A DNA stretch of 64,000 nucleotides from Psilocybe cubensis (taxonomy: Eukaryota), in assembly GCA_017499595.2 (NCBI GenBank), contig CM039001.1, forward strand, positions 3,100,001 through 3,164,000, given 5' to 3'. A model generated the notes under the pieces. That model did no database searches, was not told the origin of the DNA, and was given only the letters and a program-made list of their open reading frames with translations. This document shows positions 6,831 through 62,746 of this stretch, in pieces (within the stretch, counting starts at the first letter, position 1; each line of letters starts with the position of its first letter). The translations under genes and the position numbers were made by a program.

Positions 6831-6952
6831 TGACCGAGGTAGGGGTCGAACCTACAATCTCCTGATGATTACGTAAGCGAATTACGTAAGGAGCTAGCTA
6901 TAGTCGCTCACTGAAGTCGTAGTCAGACGCGATGCCATTTCGCCACACGGCC
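6831..6952 (-). tRNA. tRNA-Arg(ACG) with a 50-nt intron
   Basis: Reverse complement reads GGCCGTG-TG-GCGA-AATGGCA-TCGC-G-TCTGA-CT-ACG-A-[50 nt]-A-TCAGG-AGATT-GTAGG-TTCGACC-CCTAC-CTCGGTC-A. The intron is at the canonical 37/38 position. Confidence 0.93.
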
Positions 6953-29733: not shown

Positions 29734-32700
29734 ATGCCAGCGAAAACGAAACCGACCCTCGTACAGACGCTGCTCAACCGCCCGTCCCAGTCGTACGCGA
29801 CGCAGATACAGGCCGAGTCTGGACCCAAGAAGGAGTATTACTCGACAAAGCAGGAGATGCTGCGTATCGCCGCCGCTGCCGCCCGGGAGGCTGCTGATGG
29901 TGGTGATGGTCAGCTACAGCGAGTGCACGGACGCAGGCGAGAACGAGGCAAAGAAGACTTTGAATCGTCTTCCAGTATGAGTACAAGCACGCGGATGAGC
30001 GAAAACGACCGGGTACGTCAAAGAGCGCTTTTCCCATGGATCGATTTAAATTATTTATATTGTTTTTACAATTCTTTTCTACCTTGTTGCTATTTGGAAC
30101 TAAACCAACTTGCAACTCTCTTGTTCATCGTAGATATCAGCCGCCTTTCATCCCCCTTCGTCAACCTCAACTTCAACGTTATCATCACACACACTGGCGA
30201 AACCACTCTACAGGTCCACAGGACCTCCACCTCCACCCCGCCACCACCACCAAAACCACCACCACGAGGTCGACGACGACGAGGAGGGAGACGTGGACTC
30301 GGACCTCGAAGAGGTCTTTTTCACACCCAACACCTCCCCGCGCACATCCATGGCCTCCTCCGTCGCCACACTCACCTTCCCCTCCCTATCCGCCCGCAAG
30401 CCAAGCCGCAGATCACTCACAGCCGCCAGGGACTCGCACTCGCACTCGCACCTGCCACTCCAGCTCCCTGTAGATGCTCCCAGTGCCAGTGACAGTGCTG
30501 GTGTTAATCCTACACCGCACACTACCAAAACGCCACAGGCGTCTCTGCCTCAAGGCCCGCACGCGGCAGTCCCCTCCACCCGCACCCCCTCCTCCTCCTC
30601 CATCTCCCGCGCGCGCCATGCACACGTGTTATCCACCGCATCGACGTCGACGATGTCCGTGTCCTCGACGAGTCTCGATGCCCACTCCGTCTTTTCGGGG
30701 TTTGTGGATTCGGAAGAGTCGACGGTGACGGTGCTTACGAGTCCTTATCAGAGTGATGAAATGGGGAGTGGGAGTGGGGGTAGGGGGAAGGGCAGGGCGG
30801 GCGTGCCTGTGCCTGTGCCTGCGACGGCGACGATGATAAAGGGCGATAGAGGTGGTACTGCGGGCGCGAGTGGGACTGCGACTGCGACGGCTACGAACGG
30901 GCGGGCACGAGGCTACGCGCATCAACACGTTGAGCCGGATAAGGATAATGCAAAGGGAAAGGTCAAGGCAAAAGAAGTAGAAAGAGAACGAGCAAAGGAA
31001 GTGGAAAACAAAGAAAGGGAAGCGAGAAAGACGACGCAGCCTGATGCGGCGCGATCGCGCGCGAATCCGTCTACCAGCGCCATAGCCAACGCTTCCAACT
31101 CTAAGCAACAAGCGGGTGCACCGAGCGCGTGGGCGGAGCGGTCGGCTAAGATCGCTGCTGCTGCTGCTGCTGCGTCGAAAGCGGGTGCGGGTGCAGGTAA
31201 AGTGGATGCGGGTGCGGGTAAAGTGGACGTGAAGCGGACAACGAGCTCGGGGAGTGCGAGTCGGGATGCGAATGCGAAGGGGAAAGAGAGAGAGCGCGAA
31301 CGCGAGCGGGAGAGGGAGAAGGAGAGGGAGAGGGAGAAGAAAGGTGTTGGCGCTGGCGCTGGCGCTCCTCGTGTATCTTCCCAAAGTCAAAGTCATGCCC
31401 AAAATCAAAGTCAAGCGCCGCAAACACCTACGCAGACACCTACGCAGACACCTACGCATCGCTCATCACAACCGCCGTCCACATCGACGTCGACATTGAA
31501 TCAAAGTGTACCATCGACGAAAACGTACCCCGGTTCTCCTTCCTCTCCTTCCTCTGCTTCTCCTTATTCACCTTCACCTTATTCACCTTCTCCTTCTCAG
31601 TCGGCTTCATTGTCTTCGACAACGACGCCGACGACGACGAAGAAGCAACCACATACGTTTTCGGCGTTCGCTGCGCTTCCTGCGTCTTCTCCGGTGTCGG
31701 GGTCGGGATCAGCGTTGGGGTCGGGGTTGGGGTCGAGTTCTACAAAAGGCGCTGGGAAGACGAATGGGCATGCGTCTGCTGGTGGTGTTGGTGGACCTTC
31801 AACCCCTTCGTCGGGATCGAAATCGGCGTCGAAGGTTAATGGACACGCAGATGCGAATGGAGATGTAAACGCAGCGGTACCCTCTTCTTCTGCTGGTGCT
31901 GGTGCTGCGCCGTCTTCGGCGGCGGCGGCGGCGGCGGCGGCGCGGTCGTCGTCTGGTAAAGCTGTGTCTCCTGTGCCGACTTCGAGTTCGGCTTCAACGG
32001 CGACTTCGACGGCGACTTCGAGTGCAACGCGCCAGCAACAAACTCAAAAACAACCCCAATCTCAACCCCAGTCTCAACAACCCCAACAGCAGCCTCGGCC
32101 CCAACAGCGCAAAAAACCAGCGGTATATAAACCCCCACCGAGCACTATGCTAGGCATGGACGCGTTGCTTGAGGAAGACGAGGACGAGGACGCGGATGCC
32201 GGCTTCGACGCGTACGCTTATAATGGGAACGCTTATAATGGGAACGCGGAGCGAGGGGAGGGGGAGGGGCGGTATGAATGGAGTCCTAGTTGGGATGAGG
32301 GGTTAGGTGCTGGTGTGGGAGTGGGCACAGGAGGAGGGGGAGGGGGAGGGGGGAAGACGTTAAGGCATACGCGCGGGCGGACGGCGCAGGGACATGGGCA
32401 GGGACGGGACGCGTCGTCTTCGTCTTCATCTGCGTCTTCGCATTCGAATTCCCAATCTACCGCAACAGCACGGCACCCAAAAACCCAAACCCAAACGCCC
32501 AAAACCCAAACTCAAACGCAAACGCAAACGCAAACACAAACACAAACGCCAAAAACGCTCTCCGACGAAGTCCAAGCTTTGCACACGAGCTTCGGGCCGC
32601 CAGGCGGGGACAGACCGAGTTATGGGACGCAGGGGTACAGCGCGCTCGTGCTCCCGCGCGCACCTGCGCCTTTATCGCTTTCCCTTGCCCATCTGGGCGA

Positions 32701-35661
32701 TGACGGCGGTGGTGGGGGTAACGCGTTTTTAGGCAACGGGCGTGGGCACACGAACGGACTTGGTCTGGGACATGGATGGAGGAACGGACACAGACACGCA
32801 ACACTAAAACCGCTCTCCCTAAAAACACTAACCACACTCGCGCTCTCGCCCGAAGGACGCGTGGATCTGACGCAGAGCGGGCTGGCGAGTGGGACGATGG
32901 CGAGTGTGGAGGTTGTTAGGGGGTTGGCGAGAGCTAGAGCGGGTGGTGGGGTTGGAGGGGTGGGGGGTGTTTTGGGGTTTATTAGGAGGCGGGCTGGGTC
33001 GGGCGCGGGGGTGGGGGTGGGGAGGAGCCGCGCAGCTAGTGTTGGTGTTGGCGCTGGTGGTATAGCTGCGAACGCGAACGCGAATCCAAACGCGAACGGC
33101 GCGATCCCAAGCACAAGCACGATGACAAGCCCACTAAGCTTCACATCCTACCGCGCCCCGCCAAACTATGTGCCGAGCGGAAGCGTGCTTGTGCAGGTGT
33201 GGGCGGTGGGCGTGGATGGAGTGGATGGGCGGCTTGTTGGGGTGCGGTTTGGTGCGGGTGGAGGAGGAGGTGGGGGTGGGGGTGGTGGGGGTGGTGGTGG
33301 TGGAAGAGGAGGAGGTGCGGGTGCGGGTGGTGGTGAAGGAGGTGTGGTGCAGGATGAGGGAGAGGAGACGGAGCAAGAAACGGAGATGGAGACGGAGACG
33401 GAGGAAAGACGCGCTGGCGAGACGGAGGCAGAGGCAGAGGCAGAGCCTGATACGGAGGAGGAGACGGAGGAGGCGCAGTATTATTCCACTCCACCGCCTA
33501 TGACCCAGCCGCAGAAGAAAGGCGGCTTCGCGGCGCTTGGGAGGTCGTTGAGTTTGCGTTTGTCGCGCGGGAATGGGAACGGGAACGGGACGGTGAAGCA
33601 GCAGAAGGACAAGGAGAAGGAGAAACCGAAGAGGTCTGCGTCGGCTGTTGTTGGTGCTTTGCGCGCGGGCGGTAATAATGCGAGTGCGAGTGCGGGTGCG
33701 AGTGCGGGTGCGAATGGGAGCGCGACGATGCGTGGGCAGTCTGAGCCGCCGCAGACGCCTCCGCGGCATAAAGACGGCGCGGGTGGTGGTGGTGGTGGGC
33801 ATAAGCGCTCGTTGTCGTTCTCCCTCAAGCGGGGTACTGGCAACGCAGCGTCGTTATCGTCTCCTGCGTCTGGGAAGTCTCAGGACCAACAAGGGCAAAA
33901 GAAAAACATACTGAAAAAAGAGAAAACCCGACTTAAGAGAGCCCAGACGGTGAAAGCGGAGGTGGGGTATATACCTGGGAGAAGCTTTGTGGGGCGGGTG
34001 TTGGAGTGTGGGTGGGAGGTGCGGGATGAGGTTGTGAGGAAGGGTGAGTGGGTTGTTGGGTTGTTGGATGTTAGGAAGGTGGGTGGTTTTTTCTCTTCTG
34101 TTTTTCGTGGTTTCGGTTTTGGTTTGGGTTTTTGGTTTGGGGTTTGGGGGTTTTGGTTTTGTGGTTTCGTGGGTGTGGGCACTGCGCTGCGCGTTTTTTC
34201 CACTGTGGGAGTTAGCTGGGAAGGGATGTGAGGGTGTTGGATGTTCTAGGTTGCGTTGGCATGGTGCTTTCTTTCATATATTTTTTTTCAAAGGCAATTT
34301 CAAGTCCTTTCATTACGTGTTGTCGCCCTTCCCTGTCACTTTTTATCTTTAGACTTTACTCATGACGTTTTCGCGTTCTCTCTTTTTTTTCTGAATGACA
34401 GGCTGGCGCGCTGGCAGAGTTTATCGTCGTCGATCGTCGGCGTATCCATAGGGTGCCGCAGCCTAGCGGTGCGGGCGAGGATGGTCGACCCATGTGGGCC
34501 CCCGCGGCAAGTTCGTCACCGACGACGATCCCGCTGTCGCTTGAGGAGCTCGCGCTGTTGCCGCTGTGTGGGCTCCCTGCGTATCGCGCCGTGCGCACGT
34601 TTTTGTATGCGTTTTCGTCTGCTAGAGATCGGGAGGGGCTCTCGGCGCCTTCCGCCGCGCTCGACTTTGTCGGCAATGGGAATGGGAACGGGCACACGAA
34701 CAACAGCGCCATGCGCCCGCCCCTTTCACCTCACAACTCATCCACGCGGCGCGGCACACTACCCGAACACGACGCAGACAGACGGCGCCGCGTGCTCGTT
34801 CTGCGCGGGCACGACGGGGCCGGGGCGATGGCGGTGCAGATGCTCGCTGCGCGCGGGTGGCGGGTGAGCGTGCATGTGCCGTGCTCGGCGATGCCCGTGC
34901 GTGCAAGGGTGGACGGGGCGGTTGTGGACCGGTTTATGCAGGTTACGGAGGAGAGGGCGAGGGTGTGGGGTGCGGATGAGATTATACATGATGATGGTGC
35001 GCCTGGGGGCGCTGGTGCTGATGTGGGTGTGGGAGGGGGGTATGGTGAGGGGTATGGGGATGGGGACGGGGATGATGGGAGTGCGGCGGCTGTGAGATTG
35101 ATGGAGATGATTAGAGAGGAGGGAGATGTGTTTGATGCTGTACTTGATACGATTGGCGGGCGCGAGGTGAGAGAGGCGGCGGAGAGGCTTTTAAGGTCCC
35201 CTGGTGGGAGGAGGGATCATGGGCAGTTTACGACGCTCGTTGGGGATGCGCCGCATCGCGTTGTGCCGAGCGCGGGCGATAATTTTAGGGCGGGGTTGCG
35301 TGCGCTGAGAGTTGGCGGTGCGGGTGCGGCGGTGGATTCGGTGGGTGGTGGTGGTGTTGATGAAAGCGCCGGTGGAGGAGGTAAAGTGGGCTATGCGTGG
35401 ATAAGCGTCGCGCAGGATGTGGATTGGGAAGGCGTAGATGTGGGCGAGACGCTGGGTACTGTTGTGAGGCTTGCGATGGAGGAGGGTCTGAGGCCTGTTT
35501 TGGACGATATGGAGTATGATGCCGAGGATGCGGGGGTAGGGGTAGGGGTAGGGGTAGGAGCGGGATCGCGGGCGGTGCGGTTCGAGGATGCGCCGGGGGT
35601 GTTTGTGGATGATGGACCGTTGCGCGATGGCGGGACGGTTGTTGTGCGCGTTGCGGTGTGA
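29734..35661 (+). CDS. ~1800-aa protein: very long low-complexity N-terminus plus MDR/quinone-reductase-like (GroES + Rossmann) domain
   Basis: Exons 29734-30012, 30134-34078 and 34402-35661 join in frame. Motifs VLVQVWAVGVDGVD, GYIPGRSFVGRV, GALAEFIVV, LPLCGLPAY, RVLVLRGHDGAGAMAVQML and FDAVLDTIGG. Confidence 0.75.
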
Positions 35662-53079: not shown

Positions 53080-54046
53080 TTAGAATATACTGTTAAGTAC
53101 ACTATCTAAAGGGATCTCCTTTTTCTTCTTAACGGTGTGCTCTTTTTGTTCCCCTTCATGGCGCCGCTTCTTTGGTTGCGGGTTGGGTTTTAGTTCAAAT
53201 TCCTCGCCCTTTTCTTTCTTCTTGGCTGCCCGCTTTTCCAAAACACGAGCTAGCTCCACGTTCTTCAAGTATTGTTGTTGCTCACTCTTTGATTGTGACA
53301 GCTCCACACGCAGCTTAGCCGTGTGCACAGCAGCTTCATGGGCTGTAAAAGAAAAATTAACAAAGGGATCTCTACCTTGTAAATAGATATACTCACCAAC
53401 TTGCTCCGTCAGCATGTACCACTTGAATCTTGGCAAATACTTCATCGTCCAAATATCATCGCGCCATCTGGTTCCCTTCTTCCCACCGATGGGCTGCGCG
53501 TTCAGCATTTCTGCGACACTACGAGCAACCTTTTTATCTTTGAATTCTACCCAGCCTTCAGTGTAATGCGCCTTTTTCGTTGAGGTGAATTTGCGACGCA
53601 GATATGCCCGTTTGGCGTCTGGAGCATAGCTTTAGGACTATTGTTGTCGGGATAAAGAATGACTGACCTTCTTGCTGGAGATACACACGACCAACAGCAC
53701 CATATGCACTCATGAGATGGCGAACTTTGGCGGGCCGCATACCAGGGGGAATCCTGGATATGTAGATGACGCCTGCGCGATCTTGGGCAGCTTTAAATGC
53801 AGCCAACGCTTCCGGAGTCAAAGGCTTCAACGTTCGTTCTCCAGAAAAGCCTTCCGGATCCATGCCATCAAACTCATCTTCACTCCCATCTTCTTCTTCC
53901 GTTTGCCTATCTTCCTCTTCGCCTTGTGAATGCTCTTCTTCAGTCGGTTCTTCGCTTGAAACTCGAGACGGGCCAGCTTCTGGGGATTCGTCGGCTGAAA
54001 GTGACTTTAAAACATTCTTTTGGTTGGTTTTCGGTTCGTCTAGCAT
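53080..54046 (-). CDS. ESF2: Pre-rRNA-processing protein ESF2/ABT1
   Basis: GVIYISRIPPGMRPAKVR, YTEGWVEF and IGGKK...DIWTMKYLPRFKW. Confidence 0.93.
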
Positions 54047-55357
54047 GGTGGTAAGTTTTGTAACAAGGTAGACAACACGATTTACTGACTTGGAAGTAAG
54101 AAACCAAGTGTCGCATAATTTCTTGGAGAAGCCGTCGCATAACAGTAACAAACAAATGAACCGCACCAATGAAATTGAAAACTATACCAGCTGAACATCA
54201 TTGAAGTTAGCTCATATTTAAATGTGACTACTAGTACTACTGTAGATTGAGACGGGTAGTAATGAAACGAAAGCGAGTTATGAAAAGTATTTGGCCATAC
54301 ACAAGATACGGGCGCGCATAAGCACAGAAAAACCAACCAACGTTGTTAAGTAGTTGAATTAACTAACAAGTACTTGAACTATTAGGACCTACCTCCATAG
54401 TTTTGATGAATATGGCCAAGTTATCGAAGTTAAACTTCCATGGCGCTGAGCAATGGAGGTTGAATGACTGGGCCAGCACAATAACTGTAACTGTGAATAG
54501 AAGCGACGGCGATCAATGGAGTTCCAATTTGGCGGAGCGTCGGAGTCTAAACGCCAAATTACAAAACGCAACTGCCGCCGAGTTTAAAGCAAACCACAAA
54601 CTCAAATTCAACTGACAACATCCCTTGCTCAACACCATTTTCGACGAGATGAAAACGCGGTCTATGTGCTGAATCCTGTATCTAATCTTGGTGTAAAATG
54701 CAGAATGTTGCCTGTAAATCCATTATTCGATCACCTTAACCATTATCGACGTGTCTACGCGTTCATCAATGCTAGTGGACGCTGACGTTTGCGGCGCTGT
54801 ACTATTTCTTGAAATTTTCCATCGTAGACGATGCATCGCGACTCATTGTAAGTGCGTCTATCCCACACATAGATTACATACTAATCACTCCTGCTTCTTG
54901 CGACAATCCAAGGAATCCACAGGCTTCAAATTAGACGCCCATAAGGGGCTCAGAAAGGCCTCACGCGGATTTTTTTTTTTTCATCACAGGTCTGAATCTC
55001 TCAAGTAAATATTTTATTCCACTTAATAATTTTTCATAGGCTTATTTGATATCTTTGGTTGGCTTTATTGGCATAGTCCCAAATCATAGGAACGTCAATG
55101 CAATTGTACTGGATCAGGACTTCCTTCAGGAAGGTTGCCGGACCTATCGATGAACGAGGTCCTATGTCTCATTCAACTCATTAATGGTCTTTCAAAGCAC
55201 ATTATCTTCAGTATAAATTGTCGTGCAGCATGTGACAAAAATCTTTACAGACAAATATACAAATAATGCTCGATCACCCCGCCGGTATAAATATACTGCC
55301 TACTGGTCAATCCTGTCTTTCTTCCTTACCGCAACATTAAATCATACAAGGCCCAAT

Positions 55358-58300
55358 ATGCACCTATCATCTGAGCCGGTACCTCAATATCCGAGATTAA
55401 TATCTCGCCCTGTCAAACAGTCTCCTAGCATGAAGTTTAACAAGCCCGACCCTCCCTCCTCCAGGTACCTGCAGGACATCGCGCGGGACCAACTCCCCCC
55501 GCCTTCGTTACATAGAAGCAGACATGGGTGTACGTGTATATTCTTACTGGCTCTGTCCTCGCTTTTTTAAAAAAATTGTATACAGCTATCCAGGACCCCG
55601 CCCAGGATTATACACTCCCTCACCCGTCCAACAGGCGAGGACGAAGGGAATGTGAGTTGATATATAGTTGATAAAGGAGGCCTCTGTGTTTATATGTCAT
55701 ACGCCCAGATTTTCAAGATATCGCCTATGATAAATCGCCATCTACATCATCAGTTAATCGAGGTCGCAAAGGATGTAAGTCTACATTGGTGTGTTATCTG
55801 TTCTTGTATGTGTTGACATGTGGTAGCTTCAGCTGCTCATACTATTGATCACAATACTACACCCCTTCCTACATCGGTCAAGCGTGGCCACAAAGGTCGT
55901 AAGTGTACACGGAGTCAATGTCTTTACATGTACTGATATATCGTTCAGCTGTGCAAGATATCGCCCAAGACAGAATGTCCTCGCCATCATCCGTTAAGCG
56001 AGGTCGAAAAGGATGTAAGTGTATATGAGGCTTATATGATTGACAATTGTTTATATGATTTGTACTCAGCCAATCAAGATATTGCCCAAGAACAAAGAAC
56101 ATCTCCTACAATGACAAAGCAAACTCGAAAAGGCGAGTATATACAGCCTCCAATACAAGAATTTATAATTGATTTTCTCTCAGTAGCCCAAGACCTTTCT
56201 AAGGAGTCACTCCCCTCGCCACTCCCGGCCAAAAAAGGACGAAATGGATGTGAGTATATCAAACTAGCTCAAGTCAATTAGGTCGTTGATATTTAATACC
56301 TTTACCAGTTATGAAGTTTCTCTCTAAAGCGGTCCCATGCACTTCAGCAAAAAGCGTGGTGGAGGAGCCCAGTGTTATCTGCAGCCCAGAAGTGAAAAGT
56401 GTCAGTCCTTCCCCCCCATCGCAGAGCGAGGTAGCCCTGTCCCGCAATAAGTTTTCGACGGATTCGATCCCCACTCGAGGATCTTTCAGCATATCCGTCA
56501 GGGAGTCCTTGCTACCCCAGTTCTCGCCCGAGTTCAATCTTATGCCGGGGTCTTCCAGGGCAGGACATCGCTGGCCCTCCTTCATGGAGATAGAAACGCC
56601 AGTATTGGAGGCAGGCGCCTCTCCCAGGAACATCGTACCCTCGCCCAGTTCATCATTGTCGGCAGGGAGGAGATCGATCCACGCCATTGTGGAGGACGCC
56701 GACAGCGAACCTGTTCAAATAGAACCCTCAAGCGGTAACACAATCACCACTGAAGTACCTGCGGATCGCCAGTCTGACCACGCCACCAACACGTCCTCTG
56801 ACGAAGAGCCCCCCGCCCCGACCAGGATGTCTTGGGCCGATATCCTTGCCGCAATGAGGGATAATGCCGAGGAAGATGCATCGTCTGTTCCCGTCAATGA
56901 TTTGGAAGAGTTCTTATCGGCGTTTGGATTGAAGGTTTCTAAGAAGGAGCCAGCAGTGGAGGAGATGTCCCTTTTTCAGCTTAACAAAGTCGTAACGGAC
57001 CATGAAGAAAGGGACGCACAAACAATTATGGATTGGCTAGTTATTCATCCGGAGGCGACCGGTTTCATGTCCTCTTACCCAGCTTTAACACGACTGGTGG
57101 AGGTGGACGCAGACACCAACGAAATAGGTGCGTTAAATATATTTCATTCGTTTTCATTTTACTAACTCCTGGTTTTTTTAATCTAGTTAACACCACTTCT
57201 TTTGTGAACATCACAGGTTTGATTATCCCTTTATTTTTGGAATCTCTTTTTAACATATTCTTTAGCAGATCTGGAGGGGGAGGGCATGGGCCAAACTATT
57301 GGCTCCATGGACTCTTTGCCCTCTGTTTATTCCCAACAGACATCGCCAACCCATAGCGTTGAGAACATCCCTCAACTCATATTTACACTCCCAACGGAGA
57401 CCGACCTCGCCCTCGATCCCGTCATGGAAGAAGAGACTGTTCCGGCCCCGGAACTTCTGAATGTTGCATGGACGCCTACTCCCATGCGAAGGCGCCGAGT
57501 ATACTCGGTAACACCTCCTAAGCGCCGAATCTCGAGGCTTCGCAAGGTAGCTTCAGCGCCTGACCTCCAGCTTGTTGCTGCGGGGTCTAGCTTTGATGAC
57601 AGCGACGACGAGGACACCGTTCCCTCATCCCATGAGGTGTCTGGTATTTCCTCTACCGTCTGGACGTCATTCTCCATCGACTCTTCGGTGGATGCGAATG
57701 ATTCCTCCACTATGACGGTTGTGTCAGATAAAGAGCGTAGGAAGTCTGGTAAGTATTTGATTCAATTTCCTCTTTATGTCAAACTTCCTTTGTTAACTGT
57801 TTCAATCCCACAGATCCTAATGTCGGAGAGAACATGTTGGTGGCAAACTTGCTGCCAGACTCTTCTCTCGGCTCCTTCTCGTCCAACCGTGGATGTGTTT
57901 CTGTCATCGACGCTGGGACTGCCACTACCGACCCCTCGACCGCCTCTCTCTGTGTTACCGACGTCGTTGCCCGTGTTTCCGCTGACGACGACGGCGTATC
58001 TCTCTCCGGTTTTGTTTCTGCTCCTTCCACGCCCACTCCTGACACTCACGCTTTCGAATCCACTGGCAACGAGGCTGTGGAGGCATCGTCTGGCGAAGCT
58101 CAGGTCCGCTCACGCCCTGTCGGTATCTACGGCGGCCCTCTCAACATGGCCAGCCTTCGTTCGCAGATGAACAAGGTCGAGGAGATTATCATCGCCAATG
58201 CCAGCAACCGGGCAAGCATGTCTGCTCCCAGCACACCTCAGGTTCAAAGCCCAGGTTCACCTAAGCGCGATTCCCAGGGTGCAACGCCTAAGCGCCGAGG

Positions 58301-58463
58301 AAGCATGGGTTACAAACCACGGGCCATCACCGGCATCAGACCTTTGATGCTTCCCATGCGGGTGGCATTGCGAGATTTCGACGACGACGGCAACAGGACT
58401 GTTACACACCCTCCTGGCACTGTCTCTCCCGAGGACTCCCCCCGGAACATTGTTCCATTCTAG
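55358..58463 (+). CDS. Orphan multi-exon Ser/Pro-rich protein with an N-terminal array of basic 22-aa repeats
   Basis: TATAAATA at ~55286, six phase-1 exons of 63-66 nt, then ORFs 56311, 57286 and 57834 joined by introns, ending RNIVPF*. The start codon is uncertain. Confidence 0.7.
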
Positions 58464-59239
58464 GTTTCTTTTCTTTGACTTTTTCTCAAAAATTTACTCA
58501 AACCCCCCTGGTGATGTCTTTGTGACTTGGGCCTCTCGTCAACGGTCTTTTAGGCTCTCGTCGACGTCACCACGGTTGACACAAAAAATGTTTTGGAGGC
58601 AAGTCTTCGCCTCTCCGCCTTTGGCGGGTTTTCTTCTCTCAAAACCTAGTTTTCTGTTCCCGGATCTCGTTCTCTCTGGTTGGCTCGCTACCACATCTCT
58701 CAAAGGTCTTTTGTCATCTGCACTACAGTCTTGGTTGAGTCTTCACTCTCTTCCTTTTTTTCTTCTTTCTCTCTTCTCTCTCTCTCTCTTCTCTCTCTGT
58801 CTCTCTCTGTTTCTTTCTCTTGTTATGTCCGACTATCTCGATTTGGACAATACCGGCACCGGCATCCTCAATTTGTATTTTTCTTGATCTGGCAACATCT
58901 TCATCCTATCTTTCTATCTTCGTTGGCGGCCTTCTTTTCTATGGATTTTCTCTTTTTCACGCGCCTTGGGTCTTATTCCGCTCGACACCGTCAACGATTG
59001 GACCCTCAACACCCTTTTCACGTCAAAAAATCTTTTCGAACCCCCCGGAACATACTTCGGATGAAAAAAAATTGTCTATTCTTCACTTTTTGGACCTGCA
59101 CTCGGATCCGGAGCTTCTCGTTCTCTCGCTTCGTGTTGTCGCCGCCCTTTGCCAACCTAGGCCTGCGCTTGTTCAACTTTACTCCTCAGCTTAGAAGGTC
59201 GCCCGCCATGTGTTCGCCTCTTCATCATTTGCACACTAT

Positions 59240-61761: not shown

Positions 61762-62746
61762 TTAGAAAAGATCTTCGAGAGTCATTTGCTTCACGATATC
61801 CTGTTGGGTTTCAGTGTGGGTTCTGAAAAGCACGAGGTGAAATATATCATACTGTGTTGGCTACTGTCTGAGCAAACTCCTCAAAGCTTAGCTTGCCATC
61901 ACCATCTTGATCAGCCTCCATGATTGTTTTATCGACAATTTGTTGAAGCTGCTGGTCCTATTTGTGATTTTAAACCATCAAAGTCCAGAACCTCGAATAG
62001 AAATGTTATGAGTACCTTCAGGTTATTCCCGACCATCATTTTGAGCACAAGGAAGAGTTCCCCATTAGAGATGTAACCGTCCCTATCGACATCGTATACA
62101 TTGAAGGCAACTGAATTATTCATTGGTTCGAAGGAACAAAATTGAATTTTCGATGGTGTAGTTCAGGGATGAGAAAACAGTCAGAACAACCAGCAATACG
62201 CGAACCAGACAATAAAAGCACAAACATTTGAGTTTCTCTTCTCTTCCTCCTCTACTGCTAAAAGCGCTGAGACCACCGACGAACTCCTGGAAGTCAACTG
62301 TACCTCCACCACTGACAAATAACCATATTCGATGAGATTAGGAGCTTCAATATAATGACCTATGCTCACTCTTCGTCGAAGATGGCAATCATTCGGGATG
62401 CAAGAGGATTGGTCGCAATCTGAGGAATTTGCAAGAATTCTTCGCGATCGATAGATCCAGACCCGTCGCTAAAGTTGGGGATGTTCATCGGTACACGAAA
62501 ACACAGCATAACAAGAACTGGGGTACCTGTCCAACTTCATGAAGCGTTTCTTCAGTCTCTCCAATTCTGGTTGGGTGACTGTAGAGATGTCAAAGGTTAA
62601 CCAAGTTCGTGGACGTCATAGCCTATCTCGACGAACAATTGGACCGCCTCTCCATATCCTCCATGAACTGCGAAGCTATATTGGCCACACAGTCAATACA
62701 GACCTACAAACCAATCGCGGAATGAAAACGTACGTGATTGACCCAT
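61762..62746 (-). CDS. CNB1: Calcineurin regulatory subunit B
   Basis: MGQSP myristoylation-type start, [12 protein letters not shown] hands ([37 protein letters not shown]), ending KQMTLEDLF*. Confidence 0.96.

Follow-up and report, generated by a model that had tools for sequence, protein, structure and literature searches.

Fibrillar collagens are encoded by 54-bp exons that each carry one repeat. Tandem exon duplications are put at 7-17% of metazoan genes in a review (PMC3342872) that cites Letunic et al. 2002 and Gao and Lynch 2009, and intron gain through tandem duplication is documented in further reports (PMC4974935, PMC3443670). This paper describes a gene of the fungus Psilocybe cubensis that begins with seven tandem protein modules, each closed by an intron, and that lies in a stretch of 64,000 nucleotides (GenBank assembly GCA_017499595.2, contig CM039001.1, positions 3,100,001 to 3,164,000 of the forward strand), hereafter called the window, in whose coordinates all positions are given. 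The best explanation, which taken as a whole is regarded as highly probable, is that a basic, disordered array of seven modules arose through exon-plus-intron duplication in a gene that is real, transcribed and restricted to Psilocybe.

The locus resembles the fibrillar collagens in its short exons of fixed length, which carry one module each and stem from duplication of a unit, and it differs from them in that it has just seven units, lacks a triple helix or other structural repeat, and encodes a lineage-restricted fungal protein. With described tandem exon duplications it shares adjacent homologous, symmetric exons of equal length, the copying of the intron along with the exon, and the addition of in-frame protein segments; the cases covered by the review (PMC3342872) are, however, metazoan and mostly involve mutually exclusive splicing, whereas the seven units described here are apparently used together as a repeat protein. 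A search of the open-access literature for tandem exon duplication in fungi brought up no fungal case among titles and abstract openings, which is not proof of absence. Intron gain by tandem genomic duplication is comparable in that the intron count is raised over a short evolutionary distance, as is reported for the potato RNA-dependent RNA polymerase gene (PMC4974935), but in that model exon sequence is turned into intron via a duplicated AGGT, whereas here an existing intron was copied. The process is a known one, of which the locus gives a clean example, and the element is not of a new kind. What it offers is a tidy, dated case from a fungus in which protein modules and introns both appear to have been gained through the copying of exon plus intron, and it does not open a long-standing question.

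Anatomy and origin of the repeat array

The gene occupies the + strand as a single coding sequence (55358-58463) running from an ATG at 55358 to a TAG at 58461-58463, and it comprises 11 exons that encode about 848 amino acids (aa), with the array at the N-terminus (Table 1). All 10 introns, including the three outside the array, are in phase 1. A script check of the boundaries returned the six array exons as listed in a preliminary description of this DNA, with lengths of 66, 66, 66, 66, 63 and 66 nucleotides (nt), phase 1-1 and identical peptides, and the seventh unit that had been proposed for the end of exon 1 was borne out at about 55466-55529. Each of the array exons 2-7 is preceded by a CAG acceptor, and the coding frame begins at its third base.

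The seven modules are 21-22 residues long and consist of an acidic head (QDIAQD-like), a middle part rich in Pro, Ser and Thr, and a basic tail (KRGRKG-like), and a phase-1 intron closes every module at the same point. In all units the net charge changes from -1 to -2 in the head, through near neutrality in the middle, to +2 to +4 in the tail. Exon length is fixed at 63-66 nt, intron length varies from 50 to 59 nt, and the unit starts have spacings of 122, 123, 124, 116, 121, 114 and 125 nt.

Statistical support for the repeat was obtained by a leave-one-out test, in which a profile built from six units was searched against 2,728 six-frame pieces of the 64-kb window. The omitted unit was found at rank 1 in six of the seven cases, with expectation values (E) of 4.7e-05 and, as assigned to individual units, 0.41 (unit 2), 1.9e-06 (unit 3), 0.011 (unit 4), 3.9e-11 (unit 5) and 0.0015 (unit 6); unit 7 was found at rank 2 with an E of 0.19. 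Values of 0.011 or lower were thus reached by five of the seven units, while the signal of units 2 and 7 is weak from sequence alone, and their assignment depends on length, phase and position. With a DNA profile of the complete exon-plus-intron unit, the seven units alone were matched in the 64 kb, at 50.7-90.9 bits, the next match having an E of 8.2. Neighbouring array exons are mutually homologous, beyond what is expected by chance. Tandem Repeats Finder, applied to 54000-58000 with a minimum score of 30, returned 0 rows because the units are too diverged.

The introns of the array also resemble one another. Their mean pairwise score was 4.14, as compared with 0.44 +/- 0.90 when the intron interiors were shuffled, and none of 500 shuffles reached 4.14; scored against the three other introns of the gene, the array introns gave -1.5. 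Mean nucleotide identity amounts to 0.50 among the exons and 0.48 among the introns, the latter being a homology signal that is weak in absolute terms. Tandem duplication of exon plus intron with conserved exon length, as put forward in the preliminary description, is upheld by the shared intron position and phase, the fixed exon length and the intron similarity in excess of the shuffles. Judging from this anatomy, a unit of 114-125 bp would have been duplicated in tandem several times, with a further in-frame module and a further intron from each round; nucleotide identity among the copies would since have fallen to about 50% under selection that held exon length and frame. Exons 3 and 5 share 76% DNA identity and differ by 4 synonymous and 7 non-synonymous changes in 21 codons, and from this comparison the duplication that relates units 3 and 5 looks young.

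Relatives, transcripts and the public gene model

The gene is already public, array included, as the P. cubensis hypothetical protein JR316_0005158 (P0001; 843 aa), which is 96% identical over exon 8. The earlier observation that the array is largely invisible among open reading frames (ORFs) therefore holds for the raw ORFs but not for the automatic public gene model, which contains it. Annotation of a P. cubensis genome by FunAnnotate is reported in PMC8220353, and the locus tag JR316_0005158 does not appear in the text of that paper.

In Psilocybe cyanescens the orthologue is CVT25_000055 (P0002; 723 aa), with 37% identity over exon 8 and 52% identity in a full-length alignment. Its N-terminus contains two profile matches and three DIA-type heads, which places the number of units at two to three, versus seven in P. 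cubensis. Adjoining it is CVT25_000054 (P0005; 224 aa), a paralogue that is shorter and has one or two heads, and the presence of this paralogue beside the orthologue indicates that the locus was duplicated whole in P. cyanescens. P0005 looks degenerate, and an equivalent flanking copy was not seen around the P. cubensis gene in the window. The unit count in P. cyanescens, taken together with the similarity of units 3 and 5, suggests that part of the expansion would post-date the split of the two species.

A HMMER search of 1.84 billion representatives yielded five proteins at E <= 0.001, namely P0001, three unnamed fragments and P0005, all of which were matched via the non-repeat part. Searches with the array region identified 0 carriers among 150 shorter candidates, and among 404 of similar length the single carrier was P0001 itself; 461 pattern matches in metagenome contigs included 0 relatives by tblastn.

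Transcription was assessed by comparison of four sequencing runs, none of them recorded as RNA, of which X1 is RNA-like in behaviour (its RNA nature being a guess) and X2-X4 are DNA-like. Among the pieces listed for X2-X4, none extends across the whole array. Transcript support consists of one contig per junction, from a single run in a single study, and X1 has a coverage gap at 55728-56369. A 412-letter X1 contig covers 55300-55529, exactly skips 55530-55585 (GT..AG) and continues through 55586-55651, and contigs from the three DNA runs retain this interval, which is intron 1. A second X1 contig stops at 57127 with a loose end of 16 letters that equals 57187-57202, which supports the presence of a 59-nt intron followed by a 30-nt micro-exon. 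The preliminary description had named a lack of spliced reads as grounds for discarding the array; 55529 and 55586 are joined in one contig, and the remaining array junctions are without cover. If retained, five of the seven array introns would introduce in-frame stops and one a frameshift, and one (the 51-nt intron 6) would remain open. With stops or a frameshift in six introns, the array is unreadable as protein unless it is spliced.

Apart from the start, the intron 3 acceptor and intron 6, the spliced model is the same as P0001. The start of P0001 lies 24 residues later than in the present model, and as these 24 residues resemble the N-terminus of the P. cyanescens protein P0002, the upstream ATG is favoured. 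Unit 4 begins with two additional residues in P0001, which is what use of the AG at 55825-26, 6 nt upstream, would produce, and P0001 codes through the intron 6 interval as 17 residues. The residues added by such read-through are mostly hydrophobic, whereas the array around them is hydrophilic. Intron 6 has the same position within its unit as the other array introns, a G+C content of 0.33 (versus 0.24-0.40 in the introns of the gene and 0.38-0.59 in the array exons), and a TTGAT branch-like site 11 nt ahead of its 3' end, and on these features its splicing is probable. The public P. cubensis model probably contains both a mistranslation of intron 6 and a start that is 24 residues late; for intron 6 an annotation error is likely, the alternative being an in-frame retained intron.

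The symmetric exons permit combinatorial skipping on paper, and this had been suggested for the array, but the suggestion finds no support here: the inner exons are without transcript cover, and exon skipping is rare in the agaric Coprinopsis cinerea. In that species it accounts for 0.5% of the splicing events reported, intron retention for 67.5% and alternative 3' sites for 23.5% (PMC12230235), which makes skipping a priori unlikely in the present gene. Isoforms of this gene, should they exist, would more likely stem from intron 6, which is in frame, or from the tandem acceptor in intron 3 than from skipping. A more far-reaching proposal, in which four or more introns and modules were gained within Psilocybe, and in which the mini-exons, the GC-AG intron and the tandem acceptor yield isoforms of differing module number that tune nuclear or condensate behaviour, is considered unlikely.

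Character of the array and competing explanations

The array comprises 153 residues and has an isoelectric point (pI) of 10.5 and a grand average of hydropathy (GRAVY) of -1.28, and the pI of the whole protein is 5.5. AlphaFold2, supplied with an alignment of six sequences, returned a mean predicted local distance difference test score (pLDDT) of 39.4 and a predicted template modelling score (pTM) of 0.22. Within the array the pLDDT was 32-44 with zero secondary structure, and short helices were predicted just at 359-434 and 739-760. By these models the array is probably disordered, as is most of the rest of the protein.

The preliminary description had allowed for the repeat being an already described domain. 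No such domain was matched: P0001 and P0002 gave 0 Pfam families at E <= 10, a search in which HMMER filters may hide weak matches to very short models, three of four exon translations were without a Pfam match at E <= 1, and there were 0 matches to PDB sequences at E <= 1. Lacking a match to a described domain, the module qualifies as a new short linear motif. In the ESM Atlas no score reached 0.9, the best being 0.77 with the array part and 0.87 with the C-terminal part. Several leads from these searches were set aside. A Phage-Gp8 match of the last exon is due to chance and sub-threshold (11.7 bits versus a cut-off of 25); TCO89 (PF10452) appeared in an Atlas row at 0.86 with the family present in 40% of the cluster members, and the Pfam scan gives none at E <= 10; and an Atlas row for Etd1 is a lead only, unconfirmed.

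Tentatively, the array most likely works multivalently, as short linear motifs in a string, and not as a folded domain. Its basic patches may act in nuclear import or in contacts with polyanions, and phosphorylation of neighbouring S/T-P sites possibly tunes them. The classical monopartite nuclear localisation signal (NLS) consensus, K-[KR]-x-[KR], is a motif too short to be diagnostic by itself that is found in two of the seven units (5 and 7), and basic clusters elsewhere miss the strict pattern. Five of the seven units contain [ST]P, and R-x-R-x-x-[ST], a basophilic-kinase pattern, is present in three. Such counts would suit a basic patch regulated by phosphorylation but are no proof of one, and by sequence an NLS-like or phospho-regulated role is possible.

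An AT-hook-like nature had been suggested as well, by which the modules would be minor-groove DNA-binding motifs and the array a multivalent binder of AT-rich DNA. The likeness to HMGA-type AT-hook proteins lies in several copies of short basic motifs rich in R, K and G within a disordered protein: three units contain R-G-R with more K/R beside it, and the array is basic and probably disordered. Unlike AT-hooks, however, the modules have an acidic head before the basic patch, the R-G-R tail is not conserved in units 1, 4, 6 and 7, and the absence of any Pfam family at E <= 10 extends to the AT-hook family (PF02178). Moreover, the invariant G-R-P core is present in none of the seven units and at 0 places in the 848-aa protein, whereas Arg-Gly-Arg-Pro is found in each of the three HMGA2 hooks that PMC8934665 quotes. 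The AT-hook interpretation is not supported by this comparison and is held to be quite unlikely.

The array could also be untranslated, representing a diverged minisatellite in a spliced 5' leader, with the protein starting at the ATG of exon 8 (56311). This ATG lies two bases into exon 8, P0004 (an ORF-based fragment of another sample) starts at the matching Met, and the inner exons have no transcript or peptide cover. P0004, however, comes from a 962-nt contig, and as its Met start may merely reflect an ORF-based gene call, it says little. An untranslated leader is further opposed by the constancy of exon length (63-66 nt) next to introns that vary (50-59 nt), by the single frame that is open across the seven units after splicing, and by the head and tail motifs that are recognisable in the protein of the 52%-identical P. 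cyanescens orthologue and of the neighbouring paralogue, and it is considered decidedly unlikely.

Mobile introns of the introner type, inserted independently into a repeat that at first had none, would be in keeping with array introns that are alike beyond shuffles, and introners are reported from about 5% of eukaryote species in PMC9860276. Such insertion is at odds with the same codon position and phase of the introns in all seven units and with an exon divergence that equals the intron divergence (0.50 versus 0.48 mean identity). It is also counted against by the lack of any array-intron copy elsewhere in the 64 kb, where just 11-21-nt matches were found with E values of at least 0.036, and it is judged very improbable. 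A Kex2-type repeat precursor with peptides freed at dibasic sites, a processing class that comprises fungal pheromone precursors and those of ribosomally synthesised and post-translationally modified peptides (RiPPs), would fit a short regular peptide with dibasic ends (KR in units 4 and 5; RR, RK or KK in units 2, 3, 6 and 7) but is scarcely credible, being rejected because there is no signal peptide (Kyte-Doolittle maximum of -0.09 with window 9 over the first 70 residues), and there is moreover no membrane segment (window-19 maximum of 0.71), while some 660 conserved non-repeat residues follow the array.

The preferred explanation remains that of a translated, disordered seven-module array formed by exon-plus-intron duplication, and several points weigh against it. 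Units 2 and 7 are without significance by sequence alone. One of the seven array junctions (55529/55586) is covered by a transcript contig, from a run whose RNA nature is a guess, and the junctions from 55651/55709 to 56249/56309 are based on prediction and on the automatic public model. The low pLDDT stems from a six-sequence alignment, which makes it weak evidence of disorder. Finally, gain of units in P. cubensis versus loss in P. cyanescens is unrooted.

Feature coordinates and further observations in the window

Table 1. Exons and introns of the array-bearing gene, with the features of each and the support for it.
Feature	Position	Strand	Description	Support
Exon 1	55358..55529	+	frame open from ATG; final ~64 nt (55466-55529) are repeat unit 1	RNA-like X1 contig spans 55300-55529, then joins 55586
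Intron 1	55530..55585	+	56 nt, GTACGT..CAG, phase 1; retention gives in-frame stop	
Exon 2	55586..55651	+	66 nt, repeat unit 2	whole span in X1 contig
Intron 2	55652..55708	+	57 nt, GTGAGT..CAG; retention gives two in-frame stops; G+C content 0.40	
Exon 3	55709..55774	+	66 nt, repeat unit 3	
Intron 3	55775..55832	+	58 nt, GTAAGT..CAG; retention gives frameshift; second AG at 55825-26	
Exon 4	55833..55898	+	66 nt, or 72 nt with start at 55827; repeat unit 4	
Intron 4	55899..55948	+	50 nt, GTAAGT..CAG; retention gives in-frame stop	
Exon 5	55949..56014	+	66 nt, repeat unit 5, nearest to consensus	
Intron 5	56015..56069	+	55 nt, GTAAGT..CAG; retention gives in-frame stops	
Exon 6	56070..56132	+	63 nt, repeat unit 6	
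Intron 6	56133..56183	+	51 nt, GC-AG (GCGAGT..CAG); open in frame	
Exon 7	56184..56249	+	66 nt, repeat unit 7, most diverged	
Intron 7	56250..56308	+	59 nt, GTGAGT..CAG; retention gives in-frame stops	
Exon 8	56309..57127	+	819 nt, open frame, non-repeat protein body	X1 contigs over 56466-56819 and 56956-57127
Exon 9	57187..57216	+	30-nt micro-exon, phase 1-1	10 residues present in P. cubensis model P0001 and aligned in P. cyanescens P0002
Exon 10	57266..57748	+	open frame	matches P0001 and P0002
Exon 11	57814..58463	+	ends with TAG 58461-58463	C-terminal motifs conserved in P0002 and P0006

Downstream of the gene, about 300 nt past the stop codon, a CT-rich microsatellite (TCTC runs) is located at 58770-58812, probably within the 3' untranslated region.

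The DNA runs contain two contig versions of 55751-55951, with 0 and 12 of 201 letters differing from the window, and two contig versions of 57633-58117, with 16-20 differences in about 185-232 letters. Both stretches correspond to 6-9% divergence, and the genome-wide figure given for P. cubensis is about one single-nucleotide polymorphism per 99 bp (PMC8220353). The two versions could represent deeply diverged alleles or a close paralogue. A mating-type locus was considered as the cause of the diverged versions and rejected, since the seven Pfam families detected on 51 long ORFs of the window include no homeodomain or pheromone-receptor family.

Elsewhere in the window, 30134-34228 (+) is open in one frame for 1,365 codons, an unusual length in an agaric genome rich in introns, and has no Pfam family at E <= 1e-05. 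A transfer RNA match at 6831-6952 (-) spans 122 nt versus the 71 positions of the model, so that an intron is probably present. Finally, an EF-hand exon (PF13405, E 1.8e-06) at 61929-62162 (-) is part of a gene for a calcium-binding protein, a neighbour on the other strand.

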